Shown piece by piece: positions 10,350 through 53,330 of a stretch of DNA of 64,000 bases. Every line of letters starts with the position of its first letter. The stretch's first letter is position 1. The translations under genes and the position numbers were made by a program. The stretch covers positions 419-64,418 of the forward strand of contig DATKZA010000014.1 of NCBI GenBank assembly GCA_035528155.1, written 5' to 3'. This stretch comes from Patescibacteria group bacterium (GTDB lineage: Bacteria > Acidobacteriota > Aminicenantia > UBA2199). The notes below the pieces were generated by a model. That model saw only the letters and a program-made list of their open reading frames with translations. It did no database searches and was not told the DNA's origin.

Positions 10350-11366
10350 TTATTTGACTGGCGCTGAGTTTTCTTTATGGTATAGTCCCAAGCGCAAAAA
10401 AAGTTTCAGCCCCCCCCAAACGGTTAAAAAAGTACCCAGGCCTGCGACCAGGAATATTCCCCATGCGGAGGAGGAAGCGGCCGGGATCAAAGTCAGCGTC
10501 AGCCGCAGAGACAGGCTGAGCAGCCAGAAGAGCAGACCGCCAAGCAGCACGCGCAGCAGACGGATCGGAAGGGAACCTGTGTCTTCCGGGAGTTCTGACC
10601 TGAGTGCCAGGGTGAAGGCGGCGTTCAAGCCGATATAGAATCCGGCAAATTTGGCGCTGAGCAAAGAAAAGAGTGCCAGGAGCAGCGGCAGGACAAAAAG
10701 GAAAAAAAAGTACAATATTCCCGGCAGGGAGGAGGCGATCCTGGTCTTGGCAGCCGCGAAAAAGCGGTTCCGGTCAGGGTCGCTGCCGATGAGCCGCCAG
10801 GCGAAAAACAGTAGCAATCCGCCCAGCAGGGCGCCGCCCAATACGTCGGCCAGAAAATGCACGCCCAGGTATATGCGGGTGAAAGCCAGCAGCGCCACCA
10901 TGAACGGAGCCAGCCAGGCCAGTACGCGGCTGCGGAACACGATGGCCAGCCCGCCCCATATGGCGATAGCGCCCGAGACATGGCCCGACGGAAAACCGAA
11001 CGAAACCCCCTTGAGCCTGAAGGCGTTGATAACCGCTTGCCGGGGGAGGGCGAAAAAGCTTTTGCCGCCCATGGCCAGGAAAGGGCTGGCGGCGTCCCAG
11101 CCGGGTTCCAGGCAGGCCACGCGGGAATCGGCGAAAAAGGGGCGCGGCAGGCCGAAAAACTGCTTGGCGATCTCGCTGACGACGGCCGTCAAGGCGATGA
11201 TCTGAAATAACAGGAACCCCTTGCGCAGACTGACGCCCAGCATGACGGCGATGACCATGCCGATGACGAACTGGTAGTAGCCGGTGGCGGTGATCTGGCG
11301 CATCAGCCAGGTCAGGCTGTCTGAAGCCAATGACTGCAGGACGATATTGATCTCGGTCAGGAACAT
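10350..11366 (-). CDS. PAP2-family membrane phosphatase
   Basis: Polytopic membrane protein with PAP2 motifs PSGHVSGA and RIYLGVHFLADVLGG. Lies 5 nt upstream of the kinase gene. Confidence 0.75.
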   Translation of the reverse strand: MFLTEINIVLQSLASDSLTWLMRQITATGYYQFVIGMVIAVMLGVSLRKGFLLFQIIALTAVVSEIAKQFFGLPRPFFADSRVACLEPGWDAASPFLAMGGKSFFALPRQAVINAFRLKGVSFGFPSGHVSGAIAIWGGLAIVFRSRVLAWLAPFMVALLAFTRIYLGVHFLADVLGGALLGGLLLFFAWRLIGSDPDRNRFFAAAKTRIASSLPGILYFFFLFVLPLLLALFSLLSAKFAGFYIGLNAAFTLALRSELPEDTGSLPIRLLRVLLGGLLFWLLSLSLRLTLTLIPAASSSAWGIFLVAGLGTFLTVWGGLKLFLRLGLYHKENSAPVK

Positions 11367-39062: not shown

Positions 39063-39146
39063 ATCCAGCCGCAGCATAAAGCATTTGAAAGTTTATTATA
39101 AATAAACAATTTGTCTGAATTTACGCAAACAATTCACATCCGTTAA

Positions 39147-39207
39147 TTGCAATTTCAAAAAAATATCCTTAAAATAATATTATAGGGGAAACTTATTTTC
39201 ATTTGAG
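39147..39207 (+). promoter_or_regulatory. Island element copy A (promoter-like boxes + degenerate palindrome)
   Basis: TTGCAA (39147-39152), a 17-nt spacer, TAAAAT (39170-39175), then GGGGAAACTTATTTTC (39185-39200). Lies 32 nt upstream of the OmpA-like ATG. Confidence 0.5.
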
Positions 39208-39238
39208 TTAACTTGATAGAAAAAGGAGGGAGAATATA

Positions 39239-40078
39239 ATGAAAAAGAATGTTTTTATTATTTATTGCTTTTGTTTATTCGTACTTTCGGTAACACCCGT
39301 TCTGTCCCTTGCCCAGGAAGATGTGCCGGGCAGCAAAGATCATCCAATTCTTACGCGAATGCCCAGCTTCTACATCTCAGACTATCAATATAAGGAATTT
39401 GACCAGGCCGATTTCAAAAATGATAAGGGGGAGGATATTAAGATTGAAGGCCACAAATATCACATTGAATATGAAATCAAGAAAGACAGGAGGGCTCCGA
39501 GTGAACTTCAAATTTTAAGAAACTATGAAAATGCTATAAAAAAAATAGGAGGTTCGATTCTTTATGAAGCTCCAGGAGAAACATGGCTCAAGGTGGAAAC
39601 GGGCGGAAAAATAACGTGGATTTATATATATGCGCATTCTGAGGGAGAATCATATGAAGTGGCGATTGTAGAGAAAAAGGCAATGGCGCAGGAAGTCGTT
39701 GCCGATGCAAAAAGCCTGGCAAGGGATATCCGCTCGACCGGGCATGTATCTGTTTATGGTATCTACTTTGACTTTAATGAAGCCACGGTTAAGCCAGAGT
39801 CCGAGTCGACGCTGAAGGAGATTGCGAAACTTCTAAAAAATGAACCTGAGCTAAATCTGTACGTGGTCGGGCACACTGATGGTGTGGGGAAAACTGCTTA
39901 CAATATGAAACTTTCCCTGGCACGGGCTGAAGCTGTTGTAAGAGTCCTGGTAACAAAGTATGAGGTGGCTCAGAACAGGCTTGATTCTTATGGAGTGGGC
40001 CCCTTGAGCCCTGTAGCTTCCAATGAGACCGAGGAAGGCCGAGCAAAAAACAGACGGGTTGAGTTGGTTAAAGAATAG
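39239..40078 (+). CDS. OmpA-family protein: signal peptide + N-terminal domain (DUF4892-like) + OmpA C-terminal peptidoglycan-binding domain
   Basis: 279 aa. GSKDHPILTRMPSFYISDY resembles the DUF4892 start. The C-terminus FDFNEATVKPES...VGHTDGVG...YNMKLSLARAEAV...GRAKNRRVELV is a canonical OmpA_C domain. Confidence 0.85.
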   Translation: MKKNVFIIYCFCLFVLSVTPVLSLAQEDVPGSKDHPILTRMPSFYISDYQYKEFDQADFKNDKGEDIKIEGHKYHIEYEIKKDRRAPSELQILRNYENAIKKIGGSILYEAPGETWLKVETGGKITWIYIYAHSEGESYEVAIVEKKAMAQEVVADAKSLARDIRSTGHVSVYGIYFDFNEATVKPESESTLKEIAKLLKNEPELNLYVVGHTDGVGKTAYNMKLSLARAEAVVRVLVTKYEVAQNRLDSYGVGPLSPVASNETEEGRAKNRRVELVKE

Positions 40079-40087
40079 TCGATATGA

Positions 40088-42073
40088 ATGGTGGTTATTA
40101 TGAATAAAATAAAGTTTTTTTTCCCAGCTCTGCTGTTTTCTTTATTGTTCAGCATATCTTTTATAGCATTTGCAACTTCCGGTGATGGATGTGATGGCTG
40201 TAAGAGAGATGCGGTACTTAAGAAAGCCATTGGTCTGGACAAGGACTGGGCTGCGGAATACAACCGGTTAAAAAATTGGGTTTCAAAGAACTTCGATGAG
40301 CCCGAAGGAGAGCCAAACCAGTTAGAGCCCTATATCCGCTGGATGGGTATCAAGGCCAAGGACAGAGACGAAGTCAAAGCCCTCCTGGAAGAAGTGAACC
40401 GCCTGAGTTATCTCAATCCCAAGGACAAAGCTCTGGAACAATGGACACAAAAGTTCTTTTATCTCCAGGAACTGGCACAGGGCTCGGGAATATCGACGGT
40501 AAACGGCGCCTGTATGAAGTTCATGCGCTTGAGAAGCCCGCTATTCCCAAAGATTGCAAACTGGAAGGAGCTTATTTGGAGGCTGCAGAGGTATGGAAGA
40601 GTTATTTATACAAAAGCCCAGGAAACGGCTTTCGTTAGTCCCATGATCAAAGGATATGCAAAATGTTTGATCAATTTTTCCATTCGGGATGTGGAAGGTG
40701 ATCCGTATGGTTTTGGTGTTTATCGGGATCGTGAAGGACTTTTCGGCTATATGGACGAAGAGGGGTTTCTTAACATCCCAGATCGCGATTTCACAACGGA
40801 CTGTGAAAGACGAGGAGAATTCACGCTGACATCAAAAGGGGAGCCTGCCCAGCCCACGGATATTGGCCTGGACTGGATAGAAAAGGTACGAGAAGAAGCC
40901 AAATGGTGGCAGCTTGCCGGGGAGTATTCTGATGCCACGGATTTGATGAATGAGTTTTTCGAGGATTCCATGTGTAAAAGCCCACCCAACACGCCCGGAC
41001 AAGGACACAAGAATTTTTATGGCAAACAGGCCCTGAAACACAGCCTGCAAAAATCCATAGATTATAATGACGGCTTTTACGGCATTGTATACGGCAAAGT
41101 GGAAATAGAGACCAGTGAAGGCAGGACCCCGGCCGGATATGCCACCGTCAAAGTCACTGACCCCCATGACAAGAAGACATGGGAGACGGAAGCCGACAGT
41201 GAAGGAAATTACGAGATCAAGGATGTCATTCTCCACAAAGACTGCTCTCCTTTTACGATCACAGCCGCATCCGGCATAGACAAGGTCATCGATCAATATG
41301 ACGGTCCTCTGGAAAAGCCTGACCGATCTTACCGTTATAAAAAGAATTTGGTAATCCGCAAATCACCTGTATCTGCTAGGATTACTTTAACATCGGAAAC
41401 GACAACCAAAGCAGATGGTACAATAAATTTCCCGGGAGAGGGAGAGAGGAAGACAATTGTTAAGGACAATAGTTATAAAATCATAAGTGTAACAATATTA
41501 GCTAATTTTGAAGAAAAACCGGAGGTTGATTTCGACGATCAACTAAAAGTCATAGGTTACAATTATAAAATAACTAACTATAAGGTAATTTCAGAGACCT
41601 ACAGTGACGAAGGCACGTTTTATGAAGCTCAGTACGATGCTGCTGGCCGTCTCCGGGTAGAATCAACGAGCAAAACTACACGGAGCGGGACATCAACAAA
41701 AATAGAGCTTCAATCAATTGAAAGTAATACAATGTCGCTGGATGTGGATAAAACGACGGGCAAGATAAACTATGTAGATTTTCCTTTTTTTGATGTAATG
41801 TTCATAGTTAATAGCAATTCCCAGACAACTGGCAGAAAAGAGTCATCAATAGGCAACTACGACCCTATTAACATTAGCGACACAAAATCATATGATAATG
41901 AGTTTTCGGTTCAATCAGGTTCAGGTTCACGGCTAAAAGTGCTTAATGGAGACGGCGTGCATTTTATTTCGGGAAAGTATGTTGATGAACATACAACGGT
42001 AGACAACCAAGATACAAGAACAAGAACAGAGAAAGTTACATATCAGTGGGAGGTTAGAATACAAAAAAAATGA
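40088..42073 (+). CDS. Secreted 661-aa protein of unknown function with an internal carboxypeptidase-regulatory-like (CarboxypepD_reg) beta-sandwich
   Basis: Signal peptide (alternative start at 40100, MNKIKFFFPALLF...AFA). YGKVEIETSEGRTPAGYATVKVTDPHDKKTWETEADSEGNYEIKDV (~41080-41270) is a textbook CarboxypepD_reg pattern. The rest is unrecognised. Confidence 0.7.
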   Translation: MVVIMNKIKFFFPALLFSLLFSISFIAFATSGDGCDGCKRDAVLKKAIGLDKDWAAEYNRLKNWVSKNFDEPEGEPNQLEPYIRWMGIKAKDRDEVKALLEEVNRLSYLNPKDKALEQWTQKFFYLQELAQGSGISTVNGACMKFMRLRSPLFPKIANWKELIWRLQRYGRVIYTKAQETAFVSPMIKGYAKCLINFSIRDVEGDPYGFGVYRDREGLFGYMDEEGFLNIPDRDFTTDCERRGEFTLTSKGEPAQPTDIGLDWIEKVREEAKWWQLAGEYSDATDLMNEFFEDSMCKSPPNTPGQGHKNFYGKQALKHSLQKSIDYNDGFYGIVYGKVEIETSEGRTPAGYATVKVTDPHDKKTWETEADSEGNYEIKDVILHKDCSPFTITAASGIDKVIDQYDGPLEKPDRSYRYKKNLVIRKSPVSARITLTSETTTKADGTINFPGEGERKTIVKDNSYKIISVTILANFEEKPEVDFDDQLKVIGYNYKITNYKVISETYSDEGTFYEAQYDAAGRLRVESTSKTTRSGTSTKIELQSIESNTMSLDVDKTTGKINYVDFPFFDVMFIVNSNSQTTGRKESSIGNYDPINISDTKSYDNEFSVQSGSGSRLKVLNGDGVHFISGKYVDEHTTVDNQDTRTRTEKVTYQWEVRIQKK

Positions 42074-42244
42074 AACTTTCGCAGGCAAGGGCCAAGGCAG
42101 TTATAAAAGCCCTGGTAACAAAGCATGGAGTGGCTCAGAACCGTCTTGATCCCTATGGAGTGGGCCCCTTTGAGCCCTGTGGCCTCCAACGAGACCGATG
42201 AAGGGCGAGCAAAAAACAGACGGGTGGAGTTGGTTAAACAGTAA
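42070..42244 (+). pseudogene. Remnant of a second OmpA-like C-terminal domain (paralogous to 39906-40078), frameshifted
   Basis: Nucleotide-level similarity runs from ATGAAACTTTC... through ...GCAAAAAACAGACGGGT(T/G)GAGTTGGTTAAA. An extra T in GGCCCCTTTGAG shifts the frame. Only the last ~57 codons of an OmpA domain are present. Confidence 0.65.
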
Positions 42245-42257
42245 ACAGGAGGCAATC

Positions 42258-42848
42258 ATGTTCAAAAAAGCTGTATTAGCGGGATTCATAATCCTGACGT
42301 TTTCCAATTATACAGGAATTGTATATGGAAAGGGGGAAACAACAGGCTATTTGCAGATTATTTATAAAAGCTGTGAATGTGGGATGACTAAGCCCCATGT
42401 ATTCAGCTGTTATGCCCCTTTTTCTATAAAAGGCAATAAAATAATCGGAGATTTTGAAATTCCAGAAGATGCCAAAATGTACCTTCCCGTTGTCCCGATT
42501 GACCCTGCTGATCGTGATTCTTCCGATTTTGAAAAACAAATTATCGTGTATTCGTACAAATGCCCTCCAGTAGATGAGGACTGTCCCCCACCGGATGTTA
42601 ATGGCCAACTAAACGTTCATAAGGTAAGTGGCGAGGTCGTTAAAATTAAAGGAAAAAAAATGCTGCATTTTGTGATAAGACTTTCTATTCCATATTGCAC
42701 TGTGAATGTATGTGGTCACGTGGCTGATCGTTCAATGGAACCCTGGTCTGATGAGTTTCTGGCCCCATTCCAAGACGGTTATCGTACAGAGCGAGGTGAA
42801 AATGTAATGTTTATTTACGTAGTTAATCTTCAGGCGGACCCAAAATGA
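42258..42848 (+). CDS. Secreted Cys-rich hypothetical protein (196 aa)
   Basis: AGGAGG lies 5 nt upstream of the ATG at 42258. Signal peptide MFKKAVLAGFIILTFSNYTGIVYG. 9 Cys in total. No family recognised. Confidence 0.6.
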   Translation: MFKKAVLAGFIILTFSNYTGIVYGKGETTGYLQIIYKSCECGMTKPHVFSCYAPFSIKGNKIIGDFEIPEDAKMYLPVVPIDPADRDSSDFEKQIIVYSYKCPPVDEDCPPPDVNGQLNVHKVSGEVVKIKGKKMLHFVIRLSIPYCTVNVCGHVADRSMEPWSDEFLAPFQDGYRTERGENVMFIYVVNLQADPK

Positions 42849-42871
42849 TACACTGCTTCGCAAAAAGCACA

Positions 42872-42934
42872 GTGCAATTTCAATAAAAATTTTCTTAAAA
42901 TCCCAGCATGAGACAAATTGATTTTCCTATATAT
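42872..42934 (+). promoter_or_regulatory. Island element copy B
   Basis: GTGCAA (42872-42877), an 18-nt spacer, TAAAAT (42896-42901), then ATGAGACAAATTGATTTTCCTATAT. It opens a 43-codon ORF (42908-43039) that ends 21 nt before the DUF502 gene. Confidence 0.45.
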
Positions 42935-43060
42935 GAAGCAGACCTGGTATTTCATGGTAATGATACCGGTATGACTGGGGCTTTTCCCCGAAAAATACCG
43001 AAGCAAACGGTTGATTCCGTCTTCGATATTGTTCGGTAAAAAATTTTAGGGGGAACCAAA

Positions 43061-43660
43061 ATGAAAAAGATCAAAAATTTTATTAAAACGACTCTTTTTG
43101 GAGGATTACTTGTTATCCTTCCCATCGTTCTTACTTTTTTTCTTATAAGGTGGATATTTAATATTGTTTCGGGAATGATAGAACCCTTGACCATGTTGAT
43201 AATGAAACAACCGCATATGCGAAAGATTATTGCGGATATCATCTCCGTGGTTCTGATAATCGTGGTCTGCTTTGTGATCGGCTTGATCGTAAAGACAAAA
43301 ATAGGTAGATATTTATTTGCTGAGATCGATAATCATATCCTAAAAATTGCTCCGGGTTATTCATTATTCAAGGAAACATTGAAGCAACTTGTGGGTCAGG
43401 AAAAGAAACCTTTCTCTTCAGTGGTTCTGGCAAGAATATTCGGCAGCGATACACTTATGACCGGTTTTGTTACCGATGATCACCCGGACGGCAGGTATAC
43501 GGTCTATTTCCCCTCGGCGCTTAACCCCACAACCGGGCTTTTGTGTCATTTGAAAAAAGAGGATGTCCGGATAATCGATGTTTCCGTAGAGACGGCAATG
43601 AGGTCGATCATCAGCTGCGGGGTGGGATCAGCCAAGCTGTTTGAAAAGTTGAAACAATAA
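43061..43660 (+). CDS. DUF502-family membrane protein
   Basis: 199 aa. The N-terminal LFGGLLVILPIVLTFFLIRWIF and a second TM helix resemble the DUF502 topology and signature. Confidence 0.7.
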   Translation: MKKIKNFIKTTLFGGLLVILPIVLTFFLIRWIFNIVSGMIEPLTMLIMKQPHMRKIIADIISVVLIIVVCFVIGLIVKTKIGRYLFAEIDNHILKIAPGYSLFKETLKQLVGQEKKPFSSVVLARIFGSDTLMTGFVTDDHPDGRYTVYFPSALNPTTGLLCHLKKEDVRIIDVSVETAMRSIISCGVGSAKLFEKLKQ

Positions 43661-43781
43661 ATTTTGACAAATTTGGCTTAAAGCAAATTTGTACAACCGA
43701 ATCCAGAATCGTTATTGCATAACTGTACCAGGACGCCTGCCGGCGGTTCAAACAAACAAGTCAAGCACGGTTAAAACGATC

Positions 43782-43845
43782 TTGCAATTTCAATACAATT
43801 TCCTTACACTATCATCATGGGGAAAATTGAGTTTCCTATAAGTTC
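43782..43845 (+). promoter_or_regulatory. Island element copy C
   Basis: TTGCAA (43782-43787), a 17-nt spacer, TACACT (43805-43810), then ATCATCATGGGGAAAATTGAGTTTCCTATAAGT. A 13-codon mini-ORF runs 43817-43858. Confidence 0.5.
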
Positions 43846-43882
43846 AAATCATTCCTGACGACTGAAGAAAGGGGGAGAAATT

Positions 43883-45838
43883 ATGGTTCGTATAAAGTTT
43901 TTATATTGCTTACGGGCAGCGATATTGCTGATGCTTTTGACAAACGTTGTGTCCCATGCAGTTGCGGACTCACAAAAGACCCTGCCGGCGCAGGTCAAGT
44001 TAAACATAAGCTGGGACATCGACGGGGAATACGAACATAGGAAGGGATCATTTTTAATGCAAATAGCAGGGACTATGGAACTCAATCCTTTGAGCGTGCA
44101 AACCCCTGGCGGCAAAGCAATAACGCCGGTATCTCTCCAATACTCCGCAGAAGGTTTGAGTGGTTCATTCAACTATCAGGAGACGGTTACCGAGAAAGCA
44201 AAACCTAAGGAATGTGCACCGGTGCAGAACTACAAGGGCTCGGGGGCGATTAACACGGTTGGAGGCGGCCTGCGAGTGCAGCGAATGAAACACCTGGCTT
44301 CGGCCTATCTGGACAAACTCACCCCCATGCAAAAGCAGTTCCTTGCTCAGATTCCCGGGCAGGAATTGCTTCTTGATTTTTACCAGTTTGGCTGTGTACT
44401 CCCCGGACGATTTGTTGTATCGGGTATGTGCCAGGGCAGAGATTGTAAATACGACAAATGCGAAAAAAAAATAAGCCTTGGCAGGGTTTCTCTGGGTTTT
44501 AAAATACCGTCCTCCGGAAAGATGGAAGGCCATCGCAATTGGAAGGCCAGCCCTAAAACATTCGAATCTATCTTTATTGTCAGCTTAGCCGACCTGCCCG
44601 ATAAAATGGGACTCCCCGCTTACAAACCGGCGCAATCCACTGGAGGGGATGTGACCTATAACGTCACCTGGGCTTTTGGTAAGGCCGTTTTAAAACCCCT
44701 GGACGGGGAGGTACGCACGGTATCTTTCAATTACACCGACGGCAGCCAGGACCAGGAACATAGTCTGAAGCTCTTGCACCACAACCCGTCCCGGCCCGTC
44801 GAGCCGCCGGAATGGATCCGCGGCGACGTAGTGCCCGAACCGGCGGCTTTTGTACGCGATTACCCTTTTCTCGTGAAGGCCGTCTTTGATTGCCGTAGAC
44901 CGGTCAAGGCTGCCGAGATTCGTGCCGATGAAACAGGCGATTCCGGTAGTTGCTTCGGCGGGCAGCTAACCCAGGTAGGCGATTTAACTATTTCCGGCAA
45001 ACAAATCTCCGGAGAATTCGTCATCAAAACACCCCAGAAGGTAATCGGAACCCACCGAGTACGCTGGCAATGGGAGGGCGATATCGAGTTTGAGGACGAG
45101 CCGGGGAAAATAAAAGCGAATCTTGGAGAAAGTGAGCATACAATTTACATTGTTGGCGACGTACCCACAAGAAATACTCGCGCCTACAAACACGCTGTGG
45201 ACCTCGGCTGCGAATGGGCGGAGGGAACTGATGGAGGTGCTGATACTTTTGGGCAAATCTGGTCAAAATTTTGGAACATCAGGGCTCCGAACGGCGGCAT
45301 CCTGTCTTATGCACATAAGCCGGAATGTCCGGGTGACACTAACGCATTACTCACAAATAACGAGGGCAAATGTGGCGCCTGGGCTGACTTCTTCAAAGAT
45401 ACTGTCGGCATTCATGGAATTCAGATTTTAAAAATCGGCATTTATCCAAAGAATGCAGAGATGACTATCCCAGGAGAGTCATGCTTCGATACCATAGTGG
45501 TCAAAGAGGGACCAGCCCAGGGCAACCCTGAGCCGGCCCGTGTTTTTTTTGAGCACGTACTAAATGAATTAAATGGGATTTATTACGATCCCTCCTACCA
45601 TTATGAGTTTTCCGGAAGTTTAAATGGCTATGAAAACGAAATGTTCCAAGGCTACTGTCGCAGTCTTGAGGTGAAAGACCTTATCAACTCTGGCAAAACC
45701 AGGTGCGCTCAAATAAACCATTCCAACAAGCAGCAAAGAGAAGCGCTCATCGCTGAGTGTCTTATTAAGGCAGAGGATGATGGAACCGCGTGTGTACCCA
45801 ACCGGGATGAATGCGAAGTTTACGAAATAATTGAATAA
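43883..45838 (+). CDS. Secreted 651-aa protein with a C-terminal transglutaminase-like (papain-fold Cys-His-Asp) domain
   Basis: Signal peptide ...VVSHAVA. GKCGAWADFFKDTVGIHGI (Cys codon 45371-45373), EHVLNEL (His 45554-45556) and IYYDPSY (Asp 45587-45589) match the G-x-C-x-x-[FW]-A ... H ... D-P-[ST] layout of transglutaminase-core enzymes. Confidence 0.65.
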   Translation: MVRIKFLYCLRAAILLMLLTNVVSHAVADSQKTLPAQVKLNISWDIDGEYEHRKGSFLMQIAGTMELNPLSVQTPGGKAITPVSLQYSAEGLSGSFNYQETVTEKAKPKECAPVQNYKGSGAINTVGGGLRVQRMKHLASAYLDKLTPMQKQFLAQIPGQELLLDFYQFGCVLPGRFVVSGMCQGRDCKYDKCEKKISLGRVSLGFKIPSSGKMEGHRNWKASPKTFESIFIVSLADLPDKMGLPAYKPAQSTGGDVTYNVTWAFGKAVLKPLDGEVRTVSFNYTDGSQDQEHSLKLLHHNPSRPVEPPEWIRGDVVPEPAAFVRDYPFLVKAVFDCRRPVKAAEIRADETGDSGSCFGGQLTQVGDLTISGKQISGEFVIKTPQKVIGTHRVRWQWEGDIEFEDEPGKIKANLGESEHTIYIVGDVPTRNTRAYKHAVDLGCEWAEGTDGGADTFGQIWSKFWNIRAPNGGILSYAHKPECPGDTNALLTNNEGKCGAWADFFKDTVGIHGIQILKIGIYPKNAEMTIPGESCFDTIVVKEGPAQGNPEPARVFFEHVLNELNGIYYDPSYHYEFSGSLNGYENEMFQGYCRSLEVKDLINSGKTRCAQINHSNKQQREALIAECLIKAEDDGTACVPNRDECEVYEIIE

Positions 45839-45880
45839 CAAGACGTTCGATCGATTTGGGCTTACAATTCGCATCGTTTA

Positions 45881-45945
45881 TTGCAATTTCACTAAAATTC
45901 CCTTAAAATTCCATCATAGGGAAAATTAATTTTCCTATAAGTCGA
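45881..45945 (+). promoter_or_regulatory. Island element copy D (best-preserved; perfect 16-bp palindrome)
   Basis: TTGCAA (45881-45886), a 17-nt spacer, TAAAAT (45904-45909), then the palindrome GGAAAATTAATTTTCC at 45920-45935. Confidence 0.55.
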
Positions 45946-46010
45946 GCTGGTTGCCGGCGGATTGGCGATTGCGAATGAAAGTCGGCAACAAATACTTAGG
46001 AGGCCCATCT

Positions 46011-46457
46011 ATGTCAAGATCCATGATCGTTCTGGTGATGTTGAGCGGATGTTTGCTGATCTTCGGAAATACGGTCCAGGCGGCTGATGAAAGTGTCGGA
46101 CAAGCCATTATTGGACATTGGTCAATCGCCCCCAACGAAGCCAGGACAAAAGGAACACTGATTTTTAATAACAATGGGACGTATGAGCGGATCGAAACTG
46201 ATAAGGACAATAGCAGCTATTCGGTCAAAGGCCCGTATAAGATAAATGAAAAGCAGCACCCATGCGCCATCGACCTGTGCGTAGATAAATGTGGCGGGGC
46301 CGGTTCGGAGTGGACCACCTTGTTCGGGATATTGAGATTTCTGGATAACGGCCAACTGGAAATCCAGTTCTCATCCAGCAGTGAAAGACCTGAGGCATTT
46401 CCCCAAAAACCAGACCTCGGCACTTATCTGTTGACCCGAAAAGCGGTTAAAGAATAG
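46011..46457 (+). CDS. Small secreted lipocalin-like protein (resembles the TIGR03067 family)
   Basis: AGGAGG lies 7 nt upstream of the ATG at 46011. Signal peptide ...NTVQA. GHWSI..., KQHPCAIDL, GILRFLDNGQLEIQFSSSSERPEAF resembles the P.AIDL ... GIY.LdGD.L.l......RP..F pattern of that family. Confidence 0.55.
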   Translation: MSRSMIVLVMLSGCLLIFGNTVQAADESVGQAIIGHWSIAPNEARTKGTLIFNNNGTYERIETDKDNSSYSVKGPYKINEKQHPCAIDLCVDKCGGAGSEWTTLFGILRFLDNGQLEIQFSSSSERPEAFPQKPDLGTYLLTRKAVKE

Positions 46458-46494
46458 GCACATGTTTCCCTTTGATCAAAGTGCGGGAGGAAAA

Positions 46495-46532
46495 TCGAAT
46501 CATAATGGGTAAAATTAATTTTCTTAAAAGTT
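46495..46532 (+). repeat. Island element copy E (3' half only), containing the start codon of the next gene
   Basis: ATCATAATGGGTAAAATTAATTTTCTTAAAAGT aligns with copies C and D. No TTGCAA/-10 part is present upstream. Confidence 0.5.
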
Positions 46533-47335
46533 TATTTCCAGCTCTTGTTTTTATTGTTCTTTCCTTATTGTCGACAGGTTTGTATTTTGGCGAGGAAAAA
46601 ACCGGACAAGTAGATGGGGATCTTACTCAATTTGCCGGAACCTGGTCAGGGCATGGGGCAGGTGAGGAGGTGAGGTTTAGGGACAAGAATGGGTTATTGA
46701 TACTCACCGTCAAACACAAAACCGAATTTGTCTTCCACGTTGAAGAAAACGGGAAGATCGCGGGTGAGGGAACCATCGAATATGGTCTTGAAAGAAATAC
46801 TTCCGGTCTTGATGACCTTGTTGCCGGGGTGCATTCACTCATGGGACTGGCCCAGGTCCCTGGAATAGGTGTAGAGGGCCCTCTCGGTGATGCGGCAAAA
46901 AAAGTTGGGGAAGAGTTGACAGATGTAAAGGGAGTAACAAAGATCCAATATGATGCCCCCCACCTTAAACACGGGCCAGAAATTAGACATTTCAAATTTA
47001 CAGGAACAATAAAAAATGGAACCTTTAAAAATAATGAAGGGCAAGAGGTCGAAGCATTTTTAATTGAACTGGATGAAGTAAAGAATTTTACACTGATGGG
47101 GGGCAATCCCGACAACACTCTTATTGCAGAATATGAGGTCAACAAGGTTAAAACTGATGCCAAGTTCCCCTGCTGGTCCCCTTTCATGGAAGGGGCCGGG
47201 ATCGTCCGCAAAGGCCCGGGAAATATTCATATCGCTGAATTCCAGCAGAAGGGAGAACATCGCAAGGGCAAGCGTGTCTGGCAGGAATACGGATATGTCT
47301 GGCTCGCCCGGCAGATCGCCCCGGAAAAAAAGTAG
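46505..47335 (+). CDS. Hypothetical exported/anchored protein (276 aa)
   Basis: ATG at 46505 (MGKINFLKSLFPALVFIVLSLLSTGLYFG). No family recognised. Confidence 0.6.
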   Translation: MGKINFLKSLFPALVFIVLSLLSTGLYFGEEKTGQVDGDLTQFAGTWSGHGAGEEVRFRDKNGLLILTVKHKTEFVFHVEENGKIAGEGTIEYGLERNTSGLDDLVAGVHSLMGLAQVPGIGVEGPLGDAAKKVGEELTDVKGVTKIQYDAPHLKHGPEIRHFKFTGTIKNGTFKNNEGQEVEAFLIELDEVKNFTLMGGNPDNTLIAEYEVNKVKTDAKFPCWSPFMEGAGIVRKGPGNIHIAEFQQKGEHRKGKRVWQEYGYVWLARQIAPEKK

Positions 47336-47522
47336 TCAGACATAGCGGATTGCGACAGAAGATTTGTTAAATGAAATGATCTTACTCGCTGCCTGATTTC
47401 TTGATCCTGTCGGCGACAGCCGCGGCAGGTATTGGCTGCCGGCGGGGTTGGCCGCGATTCACTTTGTTTTTTTTCCGGGTTCTTTTGTGATATGATTTTC
47501 AACCTTGGGCAAGGAGGACCGG

Positions 47523-48626
47523 ATGGCCATAAAAAAAGGGTTTTGTTTCGGGACGGTTTTCCTCATGATCCTGTCGCTGGCGGCCGCAGAATGGCAAAAA
47601 GAAACTGCCGATCGCATCGCCAGGGAAAAAGAGTATCCGCTGCTGGTGGAAAACCTGCAGAAACAATTCCCCGCTCTCGCTGACGGTGAAAAGGCCGCGG
47701 TGAGCCTGATTATCGGCTACTGCCAGTCCCGTCTGAAAGATTTCCAGGCCGAGCTGTTCTGGATGAAAAAATATCTTGAGGAATTCAGGGCCGTTTCTGT
47801 CAAGATCGGGTTCATCTCCGCCGCCAGCAGACAGAAGATCCTGCAATTCAGGGCTTCGTGGCAGAAGGATTTTCCGGTTATCTGGGAACTGGGGCTCGAA
47901 GCGGCCGATTCCGAATTCGCCTACTTCGCTCCACCGGGCGAGTTGAAGTTGCGTCTCCAGGTTTCGGTTCCATGCAATTTCCAGCTCTTTGGCCGGGAAG
48001 GGGATTTGCTGGCCCAGGGCTTACTGGACCAGGATGTTCGCAGTGTGGCCGTTCCGCTCATGGCTGATTTTTGCAAGGTTTCCAGCCATGGTTTCCGCCT
48101 GCTGCTGACTTTGCGACACGCCCCGGAAAAAACGATTGAAAAATATTTCACCATTGAACTCGAGTATCTCTACCCGGAGGATGTAGAATTCGATCCGTTG
48201 AGCGCTGAAGTAAAACTCAAGGGACGGGAATGGCAGCCCGAGAACAAAAGCGAAACCATTGTCATTTCCCAGCGCATGCATTTTGACAAAAAGTTGTTTA
48301 AAAAAACCGTATTGAAAAATATTTTGATCGGCGCCGCTTTCTTTGTCGTAAGATCCACCCTGCTTACCTCCACCATGGACAATTCCGAAACGTCTCTTTT
48401 CGCGAAATCCGCCCTGTACGGCACGCGCAAGGTGTTCAACCTGGCCGGTATCGGCTTCAGCCTGGCGGCTTTGAGCCAATTGCCCAAGGTTTTCAAACGG
48501 GAAAAGATCATTGAAGAGAAAACCGTGGACCTGCCCGAAGCACGCGCGGCCAATGAGGATTTGAAACGGGACCTGGAACTGAACCGGGAAAAGATCAGGG
48601 TCAAGCTTTCGGTCCAGGCGATCTGA
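47523..48626 (+). CDS. Hypothetical membrane protein (367 aa): signal/anchor, soluble domain, two C-terminal hydrophobic segments
   Basis: AGGAGG lies 5 nt upstream of the ATG at 47523. FCFGTVFLMILSLAAA, and later NILIGAAFFVV and LAGIGFSLAAL. No family recognised. Confidence 0.6.
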   Translation: MAIKKGFCFGTVFLMILSLAAAEWQKETADRIAREKEYPLLVENLQKQFPALADGEKAAVSLIIGYCQSRLKDFQAELFWMKKYLEEFRAVSVKIGFISAASRQKILQFRASWQKDFPVIWELGLEAADSEFAYFAPPGELKLRLQVSVPCNFQLFGREGDLLAQGLLDQDVRSVAVPLMADFCKVSSHGFRLLLTLRHAPEKTIEKYFTIELEYLYPEDVEFDPLSAEVKLKGREWQPENKSETIVISQRMHFDKKLFKKTVLKNILIGAAFFVVRSTLLTSTMDNSETSLFAKSALYGTRKVFNLAGIGFSLAALSQLPKVFKREKIIEEKTVDLPEARAANEDLKRDLELNREKIRVKLSVQAI

Positions 48627-48639
48627 TCAGGGGGAAAAG

Positions 48640-49281
48640 ATGATCAAAAAAATACTTTTGCTGATCATGGGGCTCACCATGGCCAATACGGTTTTCGCCG
48701 ACCTGAGTTTTTCAATTTCCTTCCATTCCAATGAAACCCTCAAGGTTTTTACCAGCCAGTACATCGCCAACCAAACGCCGGCACCCGGTTTTCGCGACAC
48801 CCTGATCGTACTGTCCTCTTTCCAGCCAAACCGCCAGGAATTCCTCGTTTTCGGCAACATCATCAAGGGCGCGAATGTTTTAATCGAAAACGGCATATGG
48901 GAGACGAAAAAGCACACTTTGGGCATGGGGTTCGGCAAGGTGCTGACCATCCCTGTCCGCCTGACCAAGATCGGCTTGGAATTCAGCCTGGATTTTTCGG
49001 CCGGGCCTTACTTCCATATCTTTTTGAGCAACCACTACACCCATGTAAGCGGCCAGTACAAAAAGGAAGTCGAAACGGCCAGCATCTTGCACCGTGTCCA
49101 GTACGGACTGTATTCGACCGCCCGCTTGCGCCTGACCCATTACAAAAAATATTTCAACGCCGTGGACTTCAACCTCGGGCTCCATTTTTTCATGCCCTTC
49201 AGCAACCACGAATTCAACGACGACGCCAAAGCCCGCTATCACTTGTTCAAGACCTTCGCCTCTCTCGGGATCTCTTTTTAA
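48640..49281 (+). CDS. Small putative outer-membrane beta-barrel protein (213 aa)
   Basis: Signal peptide MIKKILLLIMGLTMANTVFA. Alternating hydrophobic strand pattern. C-terminal ...FASLGISF ends in an aromatic residue (beta-signal-like). Confidence 0.5.
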   Translation: MIKKILLLIMGLTMANTVFADLSFSISFHSNETLKVFTSQYIANQTPAPGFRDTLIVLSSFQPNRQEFLVFGNIIKGANVLIENGIWETKKHTLGMGFGKVLTIPVRLTKIGLEFSLDFSAGPYFHIFLSNHYTHVSGQYKKEVETASILHRVQYGLYSTARLRLTHYKKYFNAVDFNLGLHFFMPFSNHEFNDDAKARYHLFKTFASLGISF

Positions 49282-49356
49282 TTGAAAGTTGACAATAAGA
49301 TTGGCAAACAAACGGCATTGTCTTATAATAACGTTGCCAAAAGGAGGAGGAGGAGA

Positions 49357-50487
49357 ATGAAATCTTTCAAAGCTTCAAAAAGAATGTCTGCCCTTCTGAC
49401 GATTATTTGTTTTTTCGGGGTCATGGAATTGGCCGTCCTGCCCGGGCCGTTGCCAGCCACCGGTATTGGCACTCAAATCGCGACTGGGAATGACGACCAG
49501 CCGAATTATGTTGTCAGGGAAAGTGCTTCCAGGCAGATCAAGAAAAAAACGCCATCCATTCTGCCCTGGATCATTGCCGGTGGCGTGGTTTTGGCTGCTG
49601 TCTTGGTCCTGATCTTGACAAAAAAAAGCGGCGATGACGGTTCGGTCACGGTCAGCGAGTTCGGCGGCCATGGCACGACCGATGGCTTGTTCGATCATCC
49701 TTCCGGTATTGCCCTGGACAGCAGCGGCAATGTGTATGTTTCGGACATGAACAACCGCCGCATCCAGAAATTCACCGCCAACGGGGTTTTTATTAAAAAA
49801 TGGAATTTTTCTCCGGGTTTGCACCCTCTCGGGCTGGTTGTCTCCGGCAACCGCCTCTATGTCTGCGATCTCAACACCACGGGTTCGAACCTGCAGGTTT
49901 TCGACTTGGAGGGCAATCACCAGGCCACCTGGAAAGTGCCGGATTACAACAACCTTTCCGGGAATCCGGCGTCCGCGGATGTCGACGCCGACAGTTCGGG
50001 AAATCTCTATGTCCTTGACAATATCAACCGCGATGTGGTCATTTTCAATAGTTCCGGCACGGTGAACGGGCATTTCAGAATTCAGAGGGACAATCCCTGG
50101 CCCGGCCCCAATGGCATCGCCATCGCCGGAAACCAGGTGTTCATTGCCGAAAGTTCCGACAACCAATACGGCAACCGGATCAATGTCTTCGATCTGAGCG
50201 GCACCTTCATCCGCACCTGGGGCGGCACCGGCAGCGGCCCCGGTCAATTCAGGAACCCGATTGGAATTGCGGTCATGAAAAGTGACTCGTTGATCGTGGG
50301 CGATCACAACGTCTCTCCTACCTTTGCCCGCATCCAGAAATTCAGTTTCAGCGGCAGCTATCAGGACATGATCCAGCCGGCGCAGGGGACATTTTATGCC
50401 CGGGCTCTAGCTGTCAATGAACAGGCCGGCAAAATTTATGTTTGCGCGGGCAACAATGACAGTATCCTGGTGATCGATACTTTTTAA
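49357..50487 (+). CDS. Membrane-anchored NHL-repeat (six-bladed beta-propeller) protein
   Basis: GGAGGAGGAGGAG RBS before the ATG at 49357. Repeated units of the type FDHPSGIALDSSGNVYVSDMNNRRIQKF, and F.NPIGIAV....L.V.D. TM helix PWIIAGGVVLAAVLVLILT. Confidence 0.8.
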   Translation: MKSFKASKRMSALLTIICFFGVMELAVLPGPLPATGIGTQIATGNDDQPNYVVRESASRQIKKKTPSILPWIIAGGVVLAAVLVLILTKKSGDDGSVTVSEFGGHGTTDGLFDHPSGIALDSSGNVYVSDMNNRRIQKFTANGVFIKKWNFSPGLHPLGLVVSGNRLYVCDLNTTGSNLQVFDLEGNHQATWKVPDYNNLSGNPASADVDADSSGNLYVLDNINRDVVIFNSSGTVNGHFRIQRDNPWPGPNGIAIAGNQVFIAESSDNQYGNRINVFDLSGTFIRTWGGTGSGPGQFRNPIGIAVMKSDSLIVGDHNVSPTFARIQKFSFSGSYQDMIQPAQGTFYARALAVNEQAGKIYVCAGNNDSILVIDTF

Positions 50488-50510
50488 TATTTGCAGAGGC
50501 GGTCCATAAA

Positions 50511-50546
50511 AAAGGGGAGTAGTGATTCCCCTTTCGAGTTTTTTTT
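50511..50546 (+). terminator. Rho-independent terminator after the NHL gene
   Basis: AAAGGGGA-N8-TCCCCTTT followed by CGAGTTTTTTTT. Confidence 0.7.
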
Positions 50547-50788
50547 ACTGCTTAAAAAGTTCTTGCGATTTCCCGGATCCATTTCGGGTCGGCGGGCTAG
50601 TGTCCGGCCGCCACCAACCAGGTCGCAGCCGGCCCGATTGTCCCTGGAGACCGCCAATTCGATTTTCGGGAGCGATTGTAAACTTGAGTTGAGAAAATTC
50701 AAAAAAACTCTAGACAAACGAGATTTTTGTATAAAAACTTTATCTATCATACAGTTAAACTAAGGATGAGTTTATACGGGAGGGAAAA

Positions 50789-51613
50789 ATGAAAAAAACA
50801 GTTTCATGGCTGGGAATCATGGGTTTGATCGTGGCGGCCGGGCTGCTGGTCATTTCCGGCGCGGCGCTTTTGTCCGCCGCTGAAGGCTGGTGCTGCCTGG
50901 ATGGCGTGGTGTTCGCGGCCACGCCCGAGCAGTGCAAGGAGAAGGGGGGCATGTACTTCGCTACCCAGGCCGAAGCGGAGAATTATTGCAAGCAGCCGCC
51001 GGCGACGGGCTGGTGCTGCAAGGACGGGGTGGTGTTCGCGGCCACGCCCGAGCAGTGCAAGAGGAAGGGCGGCGTGTATTTCGCGACCGAGGCCGAAGCG
51101 AGAAAGTACTGCGATCAGCCGCCGGTGACGGGCTGGTGCTGCAAGGACGGTGTGGTGTTCGCGGCCACGCCCGAGCAGTGCAAGAGGAAGGGCGGGGCAT
51201 GGTTCGCCACCAAGCCGGCAGCGGAGAAATATTGCCGGGAAGGGAATAAACTTCCCGATCTGATTGTTCGGGACATTGTCCTCAACCGCAAATGTCAGGT
51301 GGTGGTCATCGTTGCCAACGTCGGCCCGGGAGCGGTTCCGGATGAAGTATGGACCGTCCACAAGCCGACCAGCAGCAGTGTCTACCTCTATATCAACGGT
51401 CACAAATGGGGCGGCGGGACGATCTGGGGCTTCGATCCGGGCAAGCACCTGCAGAGCCCGGGCGGCACGGCGAAATATGTCAGCAAATTGATCGTTGGCG
51501 CCGCGGCCGAGATCACCGCCCTCATCGACCACACCGGTGAGGTCAATGAAACCAATGAAGGCAACAATAAGTTGATTAAAAAGTTGGAATGCAAAGTTGG
51601 GGGGACCAAGTAG
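50789..51613 (+). CDS. Exported protein with three tandem 41-aa four-cysteine repeats and a C-terminal CARDB-like domain
   Basis: 274 aa with a signal/anchor. 3x GWCC.DGVVFAATPEQCK.KGG.(Y/W)FAT..(E/A)A..YC. Then LPDLIVRDIVLN...V.V.VANVGPG..., typical of CARDB. Confidence 0.7.
   Translation: MKKTVSWLGIMGLIVAAGLLVISGAALLSAAEGWCCLDGVVFAATPEQCKEKGGMYFATQAEAENYCKQPPATGWCCKDGVVFAATPEQCKRKGGVYFATEAEARKYCDQPPVTGWCCKDGVVFAATPEQCKRKGGAWFATKPAAEKYCREGNKLPDLIVRDIVLNRKCQVVVIVANVGPGAVPDEVWTVHKPTSSSVYLYINGHKWGGGTIWGFDPGKHLQSPGGTAKYVSKLIVGAAAEITALIDHTGEVNETNEGNNKLIKKLECKVGGTK
50885..51240 (+). repeat. Three in-frame tandem copies of a 123-bp GC-rich coding repeat
   Basis: GGCTGGTGCTGC recurs at 50885, 51008 and 51131, an exact 123-nt spacing. 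Copies 2 and 3 are nearly identical over their first ~70 nt. Confidence 0.85.
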
Positions 51614-51703: not shown

Positions 51704-52216
51704 CTAATGGTTATGGCGCATGACCTGGCGGCTTATGAAGCGGTCGACTAAAGCAGCGCTGAGCAGACCCAGTCCGCCGAGAATGAACGGCTTGGCGTTG
51801 CCGCCCACCCAGAAAAAGAGCCGTTTTATTTGATCACCCAGGGGAAGAAACGCCGTTTTGAGTGTGTCGAAGACCTGCAGGGTACCATTGGCCAGGGGCC
51901 GCATGTTCACAAAAATGAGCAATCCGGCCAGGATGACGGCGGCAGCGCCGATCGCCAGGGCGATCTTGGCTGCCGGTCGCTCCCAAAAAACAGGCCGGGA
52001 AGCGGGGATTCTATCCAGTACGGAGTCGGCAAAAGTCGGCGGCAGAGCGAAGCCGGGATCGGCTGCCAAACCGGCATACAGTTGCCGGAAGCTGTCCAGG
52101 CGTTTTTGACAGCTGGCGCAGGTTCCCAGGTGCATGGGTAGGATCGATCCGGTCTGAAGCATGCGGGTGTCCAGGATCTCCTGGATCTGTTCGTTGGTCA
52201 AATGATCGTTGTTCAT
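51704..52216 (-). CDS. Anti-sigma factor (zf-HC2 type) with one TM helix
   Basis: H-x3-C-x2-C motif HLGTCASCQ near the N-terminus. TM AAKIALAIGAAAVILAGLLIFV. ATGA overlap with the sigma gene. Confidence 0.75.
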   Translation of the reverse strand: MNNDHLTNEQIQEILDTRMLQTGSILPMHLGTCASCQKRLDSFRQLYAGLAADPGFALPPTFADSVLDRIPASRPVFWERPAAKIALAIGAAAVILAGLLIFVNMRPLANGTLQVFDTLKTAFLPLGDQIKRLFFWVGGNAKPFILGGLGLLSAALVDRFISRQVMRHNH

Positions 52217-52788
52217 GATTCCTCCCGAGCAGCGGGCAAAAGCCGTTCGCGCAATTTTTGCCGGGCGCGGAACAGGTGGCTCTTGACCGTTCCGGCCGGC
52301 ATTGTCAGCGTCCGGCCGATCTCCTCGTAATTCATTTCTGAAAAGTGAAAAAGCGTCAGGATGAGCCGGTAATGAGCGGGCAGTCGCTCGATCTCCTGCA
52401 TCAGGTTGCGGTTGCTGTCAGCCTGCTCGCTAATGTGTTCCGGGTTGTGGCCGTTTCCGGCGACATTTTCCAGCGTTTGCCCATTGGCACTTACATCAGC
52501 GAACAGGGGCATGCGTTTCCTGCGCAGGTGGTTGATGCAGGTATTGCTGGCGATGCGGCCGATCCAGCCTGGAATTTTGGCGGCCCCCTGGAATTCCCCG
52601 ATATTTTGGAAGATTTTCAGGAAAATTTCCTGGCATAATTCCTCGCGGTCGGCGTTATTGTAGACCATGCGGAATACGATAGCCGCTACCAGGCGCTGGT
52701 ATTTTTCAATGAAAACGCGGAAGGCCTGGCGGTCTCCGGCCTGAACGCGGCTGACCAGAAGAGTGACTTCATCGATGGGTTCGTTCAT
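52213..52788 (-). CDS. ECF-type RNA polymerase sigma factor (sigma-70 group IV)
   Basis: Region 2: FRVFIEKYQRLVAAIVFRMV...DREELCQEIFLKIF. Region 4: LPAHYRLILTLFHFSEMNYEEIGRTLTMPAGTVKSHLFRARQKLR. Start uncertain; an alternative ATG at 52833 would add 15 codons. Confidence 0.85.
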   Translation of the reverse strand: MNEPIDEVTLLVSRVQAGDRQAFRVFIEKYQRLVAAIVFRMVYNNADREELCQEIFLKIFQNIGEFQGAAKIPGWIGRIASNTCINHLRRKRMPLFADVSANGQTLENVAGNGHNPEHISEQADSNRNLMQEIERLPAHYRLILTLFHFSEMNYEEIGRTLTMPAGTVKSHLFRARQKLRERLLPAAREES

Positions 52789-52973
52789 CTGCGCGTCGGG
52801 CGTCTGGTATTTGATTTGTCTTGCCTGCTTCATTGGTATTATAGTAAACATCCCAAAAAGATGGAAGTTGCAAAAAATTGAATTATTTTTTCTGAAACAT
52901 TCTCCGCCTAGGCCTGTTAGTTCTCTTGAGAGGCGGTTGAGGCTGCCTTCGAAAATCGCCATGGAGGTGAAAA

Positions 52974-53330
52974 ATGAGCGAGAATTTTGCTGCTGTTTTT
53001 ATTTTGGCTGTGATCGGTTATTTCATCCTGGAATTGGTCAAGGTTGTCTCGGAGAGCCGTTTGCGCCACAAACTGATCGAAAAAGGCATGGTGGATGAAA
53101 AGGTCAAGCTTTTGTTCCAGCCGCAGATGCTGAACCAGTCGGCTTCGGCCCTGAAATGGGGCCTGGTGCTGATCGCCGTGGGAATGGCTTTCCTGTTCAC
53201 TTACGGGATCTACAGCTGGGTGCCTTCCGGAATCCGTGAAGAGATGACCGCCGGGGCGGTTTTCTTCATGGCCGGCCTGGGCATGATCGTTTATTACGGC
53301 ATTGCCCGCAGCCAGGAAAAGAAGAATTAG
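52974..53330 (+). CDS. Small 3-TM membrane protein, divergent from the ECF sigma gene
   Basis: GGAGGTG RBS. 118 aa with three hydrophobic helices. No confident family assignment. Confidence 0.55.
   Translation: MSENFAAVFILAVIGYFILELVKVVSESRLRHKLIEKGMVDEKVKLLFQPQMLNQSASALKWGLVLIAVGMAFLFTYGIYSWVPSGIREEMTAGAVFFMAGLGMIVYYGIARSQEKKN

Follow-up and report, generated by a model that had tools for sequence, protein, structure and literature searches.

A stretch of 64,000 nucleotides (nt) from contig DATKZA010000014.1 (GenBank assembly GCA_035528155.1, positions 419 to 64,418 of the forward strand; hereafter the window), catalogued under Patescibacteria group bacterium and placed by GTDB in the Aminicenantia (Acidobacteriota; UBA2199), raises the question of whether a long block of genes for exported or membrane proteins forms a single functional system. 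An earlier note on this DNA had proposed that eleven co-directional genes together constitute a dedicated cell-surface system. We recovered the same eleven plus-strand open reading frames (ORFs) between positions 39239 and 51613, here called G1 to G11, and a Kyte-Doolittle scan (no signal-peptide predictor was used) detected a hydrophobic N-terminal segment in all eleven products, with one extra transmembrane-like segment each in G4 and G8 (amino acids (aa) 263-281) and a second one in G10. That most of the genes are unrecognisable also holds, Pfam domains being present in four of the eleven proteins (OmpA in G1, DUF502 in G4, NHL in G10 and, marginally, CARDB in G11), while the other seven have no significant match. 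We conclude that the block is probably a composite, in which a young, low-GC accessory island (G1 to G7) sits beside native envelope genes, and that the region is a plasticity hotspot and not one surface system.

A variable interval between M90 and G8

A scan of GTDB species genomes with an alignment of G8 returned 18 loci (loci are designated L followed by a number), to which the window proteins were mapped by tblastn. The recurrent order comprises a major facilitator superfamily (MFS) gene, a gene for an M90 peptidase, G8, G9, in some cases G10 and G11, an anti-sigma/extracytoplasmic function (ECF) sigma factor pair, a GAF-PP2C gene, and a TolC-like gene. In 13 related loci (L026, L027, L030-L037, L039, L040, and L054, the G8 of the last being 82% identical to that of the window) the gap between M90 and G8 is 70-230 nt. 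In the window these two genes are 8.4 kb apart, and the interval coincides exactly with a stretch of low GC content. Identity to the relatives is lost within the last M90 codons and regained about 45 nt before G8. Because M90 adjoins G8 in 13 related Candidatus Aminicenantes loci, G1 to G7 represent a clade-specific insert, which GC content, the M90-G8 adjacency and the identity breakpoints delimit as an accessory island at 39063..47460 on the plus strand. We propose that in a single genus-level clade of Candidatus Aminicenantes the interval between M90 and G8, both core genes, is a recombination hotspot, and that the island was put together there bit by bit from genes for exported or membrane products that had been acquired horizontally.

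The composition of the island is foreign, in line with the abrupt fall in GC that the earlier note had noticed at ~39.07 kb. In 100-nt bins GC drops from 0.61 to 0.27 at position 39070, and it averages 0.444 over 39063-47504 against 0.563 for the remaining window, which makes this the lowest-GC stretch of 8.4 kb within the 64 kb. The GC content of third codon positions (GC3) is 0.36-0.55 in G1 to G7, outside the native range of 0.62-0.94 found in G8 to G11 and in 20 other window genes, and native values are regained from G8 onward. Such a deviation is what is expected of a genomic island. We considered a second low-GC patch at 28-31 kb (GC 0.44-0.48) as another island and rejected it. It corresponds to bamA (28225-30537), which codes for five POTRA stretches and Omp85 and whose GC3 of 0.62 lies at the low end of the native range. 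Since this value is native, the low GC of the patch reflects amino-acid composition and not foreign origin, and bulk GC alone is therefore misleading in this genome.

The island genes are absent from relatives with a G8 identity of at most 82%, and their presence varies among closer ones. Where G8 is 87-90% identical, the order is M90-G4-G8 in L028 and L038, M90-G4-E-G6-G7-G8 in L023 (E denoting a copy of the repeat described below), and M90-E-G1-P0079-remnant-G3-E-G4-E/G7-G8-G9 in L041, where P0079 occupies the slot of G2 and the remnant is that of an OmpA-like gene. Altogether, four gene contents are found at the M90-G8 site where G8 is 87-100% identical, which is the variable presence at a fixed site typical of genomic islands. 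A conserved gene neighbourhood exists for G8-G9 but not for the block, whose full eleven-gene order was found in conspecific contigs only.

These data bear directly on the proposal of one dedicated cell-surface system with anchor, barrel, propeller/adhesin, and protease components, in which a common cis-element, and perhaps also the ECF sigma factor nearby, would provide co-regulation. Every product does carry an export or anchor signal, and G1, the G2 slot, G3, G4, and G7 occur together again in L041. However, co-inheritance of the eleven genes is not supported: the inserted genes vary among close relatives, M90 directly adjoins G8 in the 13 loci listed above, and by composition one part of the block is foreign and the other native. 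Synteny across related genomes had been suggested as a check of the proposal; the whole block shows no conservation, and only sub-blocks shared with genus-level relatives leave it a partial escape. The synteny data thus largely refute it, and with the additional evidence given below we consider it improbable. The uniformity of the block would come from an insertion hotspot together with a long co-oriented chromosomal stretch (the listed plus-strand ORFs with Pfam hits span 31490-51613, well beyond the block) and not from shared function. The block is therefore no suitable place to look for a "novel envelope system". Otherwise the window is core chromosome, with dnaE, guaA, acrB, PFOR, bamA, lpxA, lpxI, and macB.

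Could the island be ancestral and have been lost repeatedly, or could the assembly have fused Aminicenantes and foreign DNA into a chimeric contig? Direct repeats readily allow the DNA between them to be deleted, and the differences in G5 and G6 could be losses. However, an ancestral island would require the same clean M90-G8 junction in 13 loci across the class, and both its GC3, far from native values, and the relatives of G5 in another phylum speak against it. Concerning assembly, L001 reproduces the region from the 3' part of G2 (41651) through G11 to 55592 at 99.6% identity, and G5 has unchanged neighbours in all six conspecific contigs (L001-L006), which come from five samples; misassembly is therefore unlikely. 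Moreover, two independent sources, the L041/L045 contig from JGI and the Logan assembly L042, both show the M90-E-G1 junction. Taken together, we regard ancestry with repeated loss, or chimerism, as very improbable.

Other cargo was observed at or near the same site. L029 has a 449-aa, multi-pass membrane, transporter-like ORF between M90 and G8 (8622-9971, minus strand), in L041 a sulfatase gene (5953-7779, minus strand) separates MFS from M90, and L025 carries upstream of G8 fragments of transporter and ATPase-like ORFs (1-2490) that are unrelated to the island. L029 and L040 belong to one metagenome-assembled genome (MAG), yet their M90-G8 junctions differ, and the bin may mix strains. A literature search on islands or pangenomes of Aminicenantes returned nothing relevant.

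A promoter-like repeat at the unit boundaries

The suspected cis-elements proved to be a 68-nt direct repeat that heads four of the island genes. A repeat search located full plus-strand copies upstream of G1 (E1, 39141..39208), G4 (E2, 42866..42934), G5 (E3, 43776..43843), and G6 (E4, 45875..45942), as well as a 3' half (E5, 46501..46531) that corresponds to the real start of G7 (ATG GGT AAA ATT AAT TTT...). The copies are mutually 75-84% identical, and their 18-nt 5' core occurs four times in the 64 kb, solely before G1, G4, G5, and G6, against 0.09 occurrences expected. The repeat contains a sigma-70-like pair of hexamers, the -35-like TTGCAA and, at a spacing of 17 nt, the -10-like TAAAAT or TACACT; in E1, for example, TTGCAA, the 17-nt spacer and TAAAAT are followed by a degenerate copy of the G7 start, and a promoter-like score was obtained.

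The origin of the repeat is visible in L041, where a full copy lies directly on G7 and reads TTGCAA, 17 nt, TACACT, 6 nt, and ATG GGT AAA ATT AAT TTT, the last being the N-terminus of G7. The repeat therefore joins the first nine codons of G7 to a promoter-like segment, in a leaderless-type arrangement. In E1 to E4 the start is degenerate (ATA in two copies), and after it the captured gene contributes a leader and a Shine-Dalgarno sequence of its own.

A second relative reveals how the repeat is placed with respect to gene content. The G4-G6 spacer of L023, which lacks G5, is chimeric: its left part is 84% identical to the G4-E3 side of the window, its right part is 95% identical to the E4-G6 side, and one repeat lies between. 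The breakpoints of the G5 polymorphism therefore fall exactly at the repeat, and such a precise coincidence of a short promoter-bearing repeat with a gene presence/absence junction is, in our opinion, one of the main points of interest of this locus.

We propose that the island comprises four inserted units (G1-3, G4, G5, and G6), each headed by the repeat, with the fifth, partial copy being the start of G7. The repeat copies would supply transcription to the captured genes and, being direct repeats, could serve as crossover points through which units are gained or lost between strains, by either homologous or site-specific recombination.

An nhmmer search of 704 kb of DNA found full copies of the repeat in the island, in conspecific contigs, in L041 and its duplicates, in L023, and in two unrelated places, each represented by a single copy in two stretches (L048/L050 and L044/L051). 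In L050 (~1547-1617, minus strand) and L048 the full repeat stands before a gene for a 481-aa membrane protein, and in L051 (~3773-3841, minus strand) and L044 it lies between tatC and a YihY-like gene. A promoter half alone was observed in L049 (~10563-10605, minus strand), where a 250-aa ORF starts with GTG at a distance of 6 nt and is apparently leaderless. Near-identical promoter-like repeats on four units were among the arguments for a single co-regulated system, and the occurrence of the repeat before unrelated genes at other loci argues against it. The repeat does not accompany homologues of G5 in other phyla.

Two further roles for the repeat were considered and rejected. RNA structure in its transcribed part or in the 5' untranslated regions is not indicated by folding z-scores (-0.2, -0.2, +1.2, and -1.8). 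Similarly, an invertible promoter is not supported, as there are no consistent flanking inverted repeats and every copy in the island and its relatives lies in gene orientation.

The arrangement also recalls an integron-like capture array, in which a recombinase encoded elsewhere would insert circular cassettes at the 68-nt repeat, duplicating the promoter with each captured gene. Four units with five repeat copies correspond to n cassettes and n+1 sites, all units are co-oriented, their sizes (589, 909, 2099, and 3726 nt) are cassette-like, the G5 junction is exact, and the absence of the repeat beside G5 homologues of other phyla implies that the repeat belongs to the host. However, no integrase or recombinase was found in the 64 kb, including any IntI tyrosine recombinase, the repeat lies 5' of each gene, and neither an attC-like inverted-repeat structure nor flanking inverted repeats are present; RYYYAAC...GTTRRRY cores were absent on inspection of the copies by eye, no attC covariance-model search having been made. 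The 75-84% identity among copies is as expected of old duplications with homologous recombination, the OmpA remnant within the G1-G2-G3 unit is a sign of ordinary recombination, and no repeat stands between M90 and G4 in L023 and L028. We therefore hold a capture array to be unlikely. We are equally doubtful that the repeat marks the site of an undescribed kind of gene capture at the 5' end of the resident leaderless gene G7, each insertion duplicating promoter and start, so that a recombinase encoded elsewhere would build an integron-like array whose cassettes all have their own promoter.

Piecemeal acquisition at a hotspot, which we favour, has its own difficulties. No insertion agent was found: the Pfam-scanned ORFs of the window include no integrase, transposase, or recombinase, a transfer RNA (tRNA) scan of the 64 kb returned none, and Rfam searches at gathering thresholds gave no match. 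Nor does the island as a whole have terminal direct repeats, no repeat pair bracketing it, so that the usual mobility signature of genomic islands (integrase or transposase, tRNA target, flanking direct repeats) is lacking. The promoter activity that we attribute to the repeat is suggested by a 9/12 match to consensus; promoter-like sites are not enriched in the region, and a scan with promoter and terminator consensus sequences picked up only E1 and E4, with counts not above those of shuffled sequences. Conversely, if the near-identical promoters are active, sharing them could mean co-regulation. The direction of change is ambiguous, as G5 could have been inserted in the lineage of the window or deleted between repeats in the lineages of L023 and L041. 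Since L041 and the window have G1, the G2 slot, G3, G4, and G7 in common, some of the island genes are stably inherited together in this clade and could be functionally linked. Finally, the MAGs carry conflicting taxon labels (Aminicenantes, Acidobacteria, Chrysiogenales, and Clostridia).

The island genes and their native neighbours

G5 (43883..45838, plus strand) provides the clearest case of an independent distribution. Its product, predicted to be secreted, combines beta-sandwich domains with a C-terminal module containing Cys497, His558, and Asp569. Its family counts only 22 homologues among 5.8 billion clustered sequences, the closest at 81% identity, and the named ones come exclusively from Desulfobacterales (the 81% cluster), Deltaproteobacteria, and Thermodesulfobacteriota. 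Their genes lie in four unrelated kinds of neighbourhood (within an ABC transporter operon, ahead of LemA-DUF3137-DUF3592, ahead of a gene whose product has a faint GIDE hit, and in other settings), and in no case did tblastn detect a further block gene within 10 kb. In composition G5 (GC 0.495, GC3 0.53) resembles its 78%-identical homologue in L015 (GC 0.489, GC3 0.505), unlike the host. G5 was thus probably acquired from a Desulfobacterota-like donor, and the locus would then document a transfer of secreted-protein genes between phyla, from such a donor to Aminicenantes, with several intermediate strain states preserved in public metagenomes.

The earlier note had recognized a transglutaminase-like triad in this protein. 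The triad itself stands, as C497, H558, and D569 are invariant across the 22 family sequences, with the Cys in the context G-x-C-x-x-W and the Asp in DPS. Its assignment is less secure: G5 has no Pfam match, Transglut_core included, and a structural model (mean predicted local distance difference test score (pLDDT) 76; N-terminal beta-sandwich domains, C-terminal alpha/beta module) gave weak Foldseek hits to transglutaminase 3 (1nug and 1l9m, E 7e-4 and 9.5e-4, probability 0.91-0.96, template modelling (TM) score ~0.17). Sixty remote relatives were likewise devoid of any Pfam catalytic family, the large ones showing mostly adhesin-type immunoglobulin (Ig), cadherin, and PKD domains, and a sequence-profile search of the PDB with G5 and G8 found nothing better than E 0.58. 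An exhaustive profile search gave 2301 hits at E <=1e-3 and 857 at 1e-10, and the N-terminal module (aa ~10-275) and the Cys-His-Asp module (aa ~275/400-590) were observed to recur separately in hundreds of proteins. From their sequences these look like two sizeable undescribed domain families.

G2 (40088..42073, plus strand) has a similarly independent history. It is predicted to be secreted, and its conserved leader of 46 aa is followed by a helical domain, by a predicted sandwich of transthyretin-like type (aa 50-425), and by a variable C-terminal region. The core (aa 52-433) is the only part conserved in its 63 homologues, which include some in Bacteroidales, Aureibaculum, and MAGs labelled 'Clostridiales' and occur in unrelated contexts without G1 or G3. 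For G2 as for G5, no other block gene was found within 10 kb of a homologue at any locus outside the window's own species, and this solitary occurrence again argues against one interdependent system. The AlphaFold model is confident over most of aa 50-425 (pLDDT >90), the helical domain occupying most of aa 50-330, and has low confidence in the C-terminal region. Foldseek found no credible neighbour for the well-modelled helical domain and aligned the sandwich with transthyretin-like proteins (2h0e_B, probability 0.99, TMt 0.47; 2gpz_A, probability 0.97, TMt 0.50). A CarboxypepD_reg domain, claimed earlier, has no Pfam match in G2 itself; besides the modelled sandwich, PF13620 was found in the homologue P0076. 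Together with both modules of G5, the helical domain of G2 adds up to three large protein families without a match in Pfam, NCBIfam, or the PDB, one of them with the invariant Cys-His-Asp.

The G2 slot is itself variable. In L041 it holds P0079, a protein of 446 aa that has in common with G2 only the 46-aa leader and the C-terminal end. More generally, the leader MNKIKFFFPALLFSLLFSISFIAFATSGDGCDGCKRDAVLKKA (40100-40240) is shared by G2 and P0078-P0085 with up to 96% identity; these proteins of 442-516 aa have a middle unrelated to G2 and a similar C-terminal end (GDG[VI]H..., W.[IV].R..KK). The sequences suggest that bodies are swapped between conserved ends.

G1 (39239..40078, plus strand) codes for an exported protein with a C-terminal OmpA-type peptidoglycan-binding domain, which matches PF00691 over model positions 1-98 of 98 (82 bits against a cut-off of 27.2). 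This domain, DUF502 in G4 and NHL in G10, all named in the earlier note, are unambiguous in Pfam (4e-23, 6e-12, and 1e-20, respectively). The N-terminal 170 residues of G1 have no family match, and NCBIfam matched only the OmpA_C part, always below cut-offs; no other block protein had any NCBIfam match. PADLOC and PHROGs, applied to ten block proteins, gave only generic OmpA_C/MotB-type matches to G1, which rules out the island as a defence system or prophage. The absence of metabolic enzymes, ATPases, and mobility genes from the block, also asserted before, holds across the Pfam, NCBIfam, PADLOC, and PHROGs scans.

Between G2 and G3 (42067..42243, plus strand) there survives a frameshifted 3' remnant of an OmpA-like gene, a copy of the last 176 nt of G1 (83-88% identical to 39902-40077) that is also present in L041. 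It makes the ORF of G3 appear 20 codons longer than the real gene, which with its start corrected to 42258 (42258..42848, plus strand) codes for a 196-aa Cys-rich exported protein without family match in Pfam, NCBIfam, PADLOC, or PHROGs. G4 (43061..43660, plus strand), a DUF502 membrane protein (PF04367, 45.8 bits against 23.8), is the most widely shared island gene, being found in L023, L028, L038, and L041. G6 (45951..46457, plus strand) codes for a small exported protein with a probable start at MSRSM (148 aa) and only a sub-threshold match to DUF3994 in Pfam (18.1 bits against 25); it is the candidate for the lipocalin-like fold named in the earlier note. G7 (46472..47335, plus strand), the source of the repeat, codes for an exported or anchored protein, and the ORF calls together with the start in L041 place its probable start at 46505 (276 aa). 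Probable internal ATG starts were also noted for G8 (367 aa) and G10 (376 aa). In terms of function, the island may provide a strain-variable set of envelope and secreted proteins and not an interdependent machine.

Downstream of the island, G8 and G9 are a native pair conserved across the class, probably with its own promoter, and G10 and G11 are patchy additions of native composition. G8 (47505..48626, plus strand; GC3 0.66) codes for a conserved protein with 64 homologues at 54-100% identity, of which the ten named ones are exclusively from MAGs labelled Aminicenantes, Acidobacteria, or Chrysiogenales. The region preceding it (47462..47504, plus strand), with TGTGATATGAT, an extended -10-like element, and a Shine-Dalgarno sequence, is shared with island-free species, and a conserved promoter region private to G8 is difficult to reconcile with one co-regulated system. 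The upstream pattern TTTGTTTTTTTCC...TGTGATATGAT...GGCAAGGAGGACCGGATG is kept in L023, L026, L027, L028, and L041 (G8 75-100% identical), island or not. G9 (48640..49281, plus strand), coding for a 213-aa exported protein ending in ...GISF that may form a small outer-membrane barrel, follows G8 in every locus that extends past G8. A pair so constant, and found only in MAGs of this lineage, deserves attention in its own right.

G10 (49282..50487, plus strand) codes for a membrane-anchored protein whose NHL match (73 bits against 20) predicts a beta-propeller, and beyond the species of the window it was found in L029 and L030 only. G11 (50789..51613, plus strand), also patchy in distribution and native in composition, codes for an exported protein with three 41-aa Cys-rich repeats, encoded by tandem 123-nt units (50885-51253), and CARDB (PF07705), an earlier assignment that is retained as marginal (23.5 bits, barely above the cut-off of 22.7; E 6e-5). 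The window has three copies of the repeat GWCCKDGVVFAATPEQCK.KGG..FAT.AEA.KYC and L001 (9139-10209), otherwise 99.6% identical, has five; the copy number varies among relatives too, which amounts to a length polymorphism of a coding tandem repeat in an exported protein. Gene calls in L003 and L004 replace G9 and G10 by antisense ORFs on the minus strand (48880-49311, 143 aa; 49375-50307, 310 aa). These calls are probably an artefact of high GC3, and the corresponding 'proteins' are now present in protein databases.

The ECF sigma factor, anti-sigma candidate, and GAF-PP2C genes reported downstream of the block were confirmed there. The anti-sigma candidate, a 170-aa ORF downstream of the ECF sigma gene (region 51704-53330), has no Pfam hit, but its sequence HLGTCASC fits the H-x3-C-x2-C pattern that is characteristic of anti-sigma factors binding zinc. 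The ECF sigma and GAF-PP2C genes are separated by a DUF6249 gene (52974-53330). The frequent adjacency of G8-G9 to an ECF/anti-sigma pair might favour regulation of the whole block by this sigma factor. However, in the window the ECF operon is convergent with G11 and not divergent from the block, which speaks against it.

Comparison with known systems

In its main features the locus resembles other chromosomal integration hotspots, in which foreign, strain-variable genes occupy a fixed interval between core genes, and where the cargo differs among relatives, as in L029 and L025. It differs from these in having no integrase, tRNA, transposase, or remnant of a phage or integrative and conjugative element in the 64-kb scan, and in that the repeat between its units carries a promoter-like part and stems from a resident gene.

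The likeness to integron cassettes, including clusters of attC sites lacking integrases (CALINs), lies in units that are tandem, co-oriented, mostly single-gene, and of low GC, with short homologous repeats between them and with gain or loss exactly at a repeat. In contrast to these, the repeat of the island is a 5' promoter plus gene start and not a 3' attC hairpin, its units carry promoter-like sites, and IntI is missing.

With polymorphic secreted-protein loci the island shares the behaviour of G2 and P0078-P0085, which keep leader and C-terminal end, swap the body, and use the same slot after G1. However, no toxin, immunity, or secretion-system domains are recognisable in the island, and there is no sign of a delivery apparatus.

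Two products can be compared with known protein families. G1 resembles OmpA/Pal-type anchoring proteins in its full-length OmpA_C domain and departs from them in its N-terminal 170 residues, which belong to no family, and in NCBIfam equivalog scores below cut-offs. G5 recalls the transglutaminase-like/papain-like superfamily by its invariant Cys-His-Asp, by the beta-sandwich domains that precede the putative catalytic module, and by its weak Foldseek hits to transglutaminase 3, and differs in that neither G5 nor its 60 remote relatives have a Transglut_core hit in Pfam, and in a TM score of only ~0.17.

Overall, the best-supported description of the region is that of an ordinary chromosomal hotspot or islet of horizontal gene transfer, with one unusual trait, namely units bounded by a promoter-like repeat.

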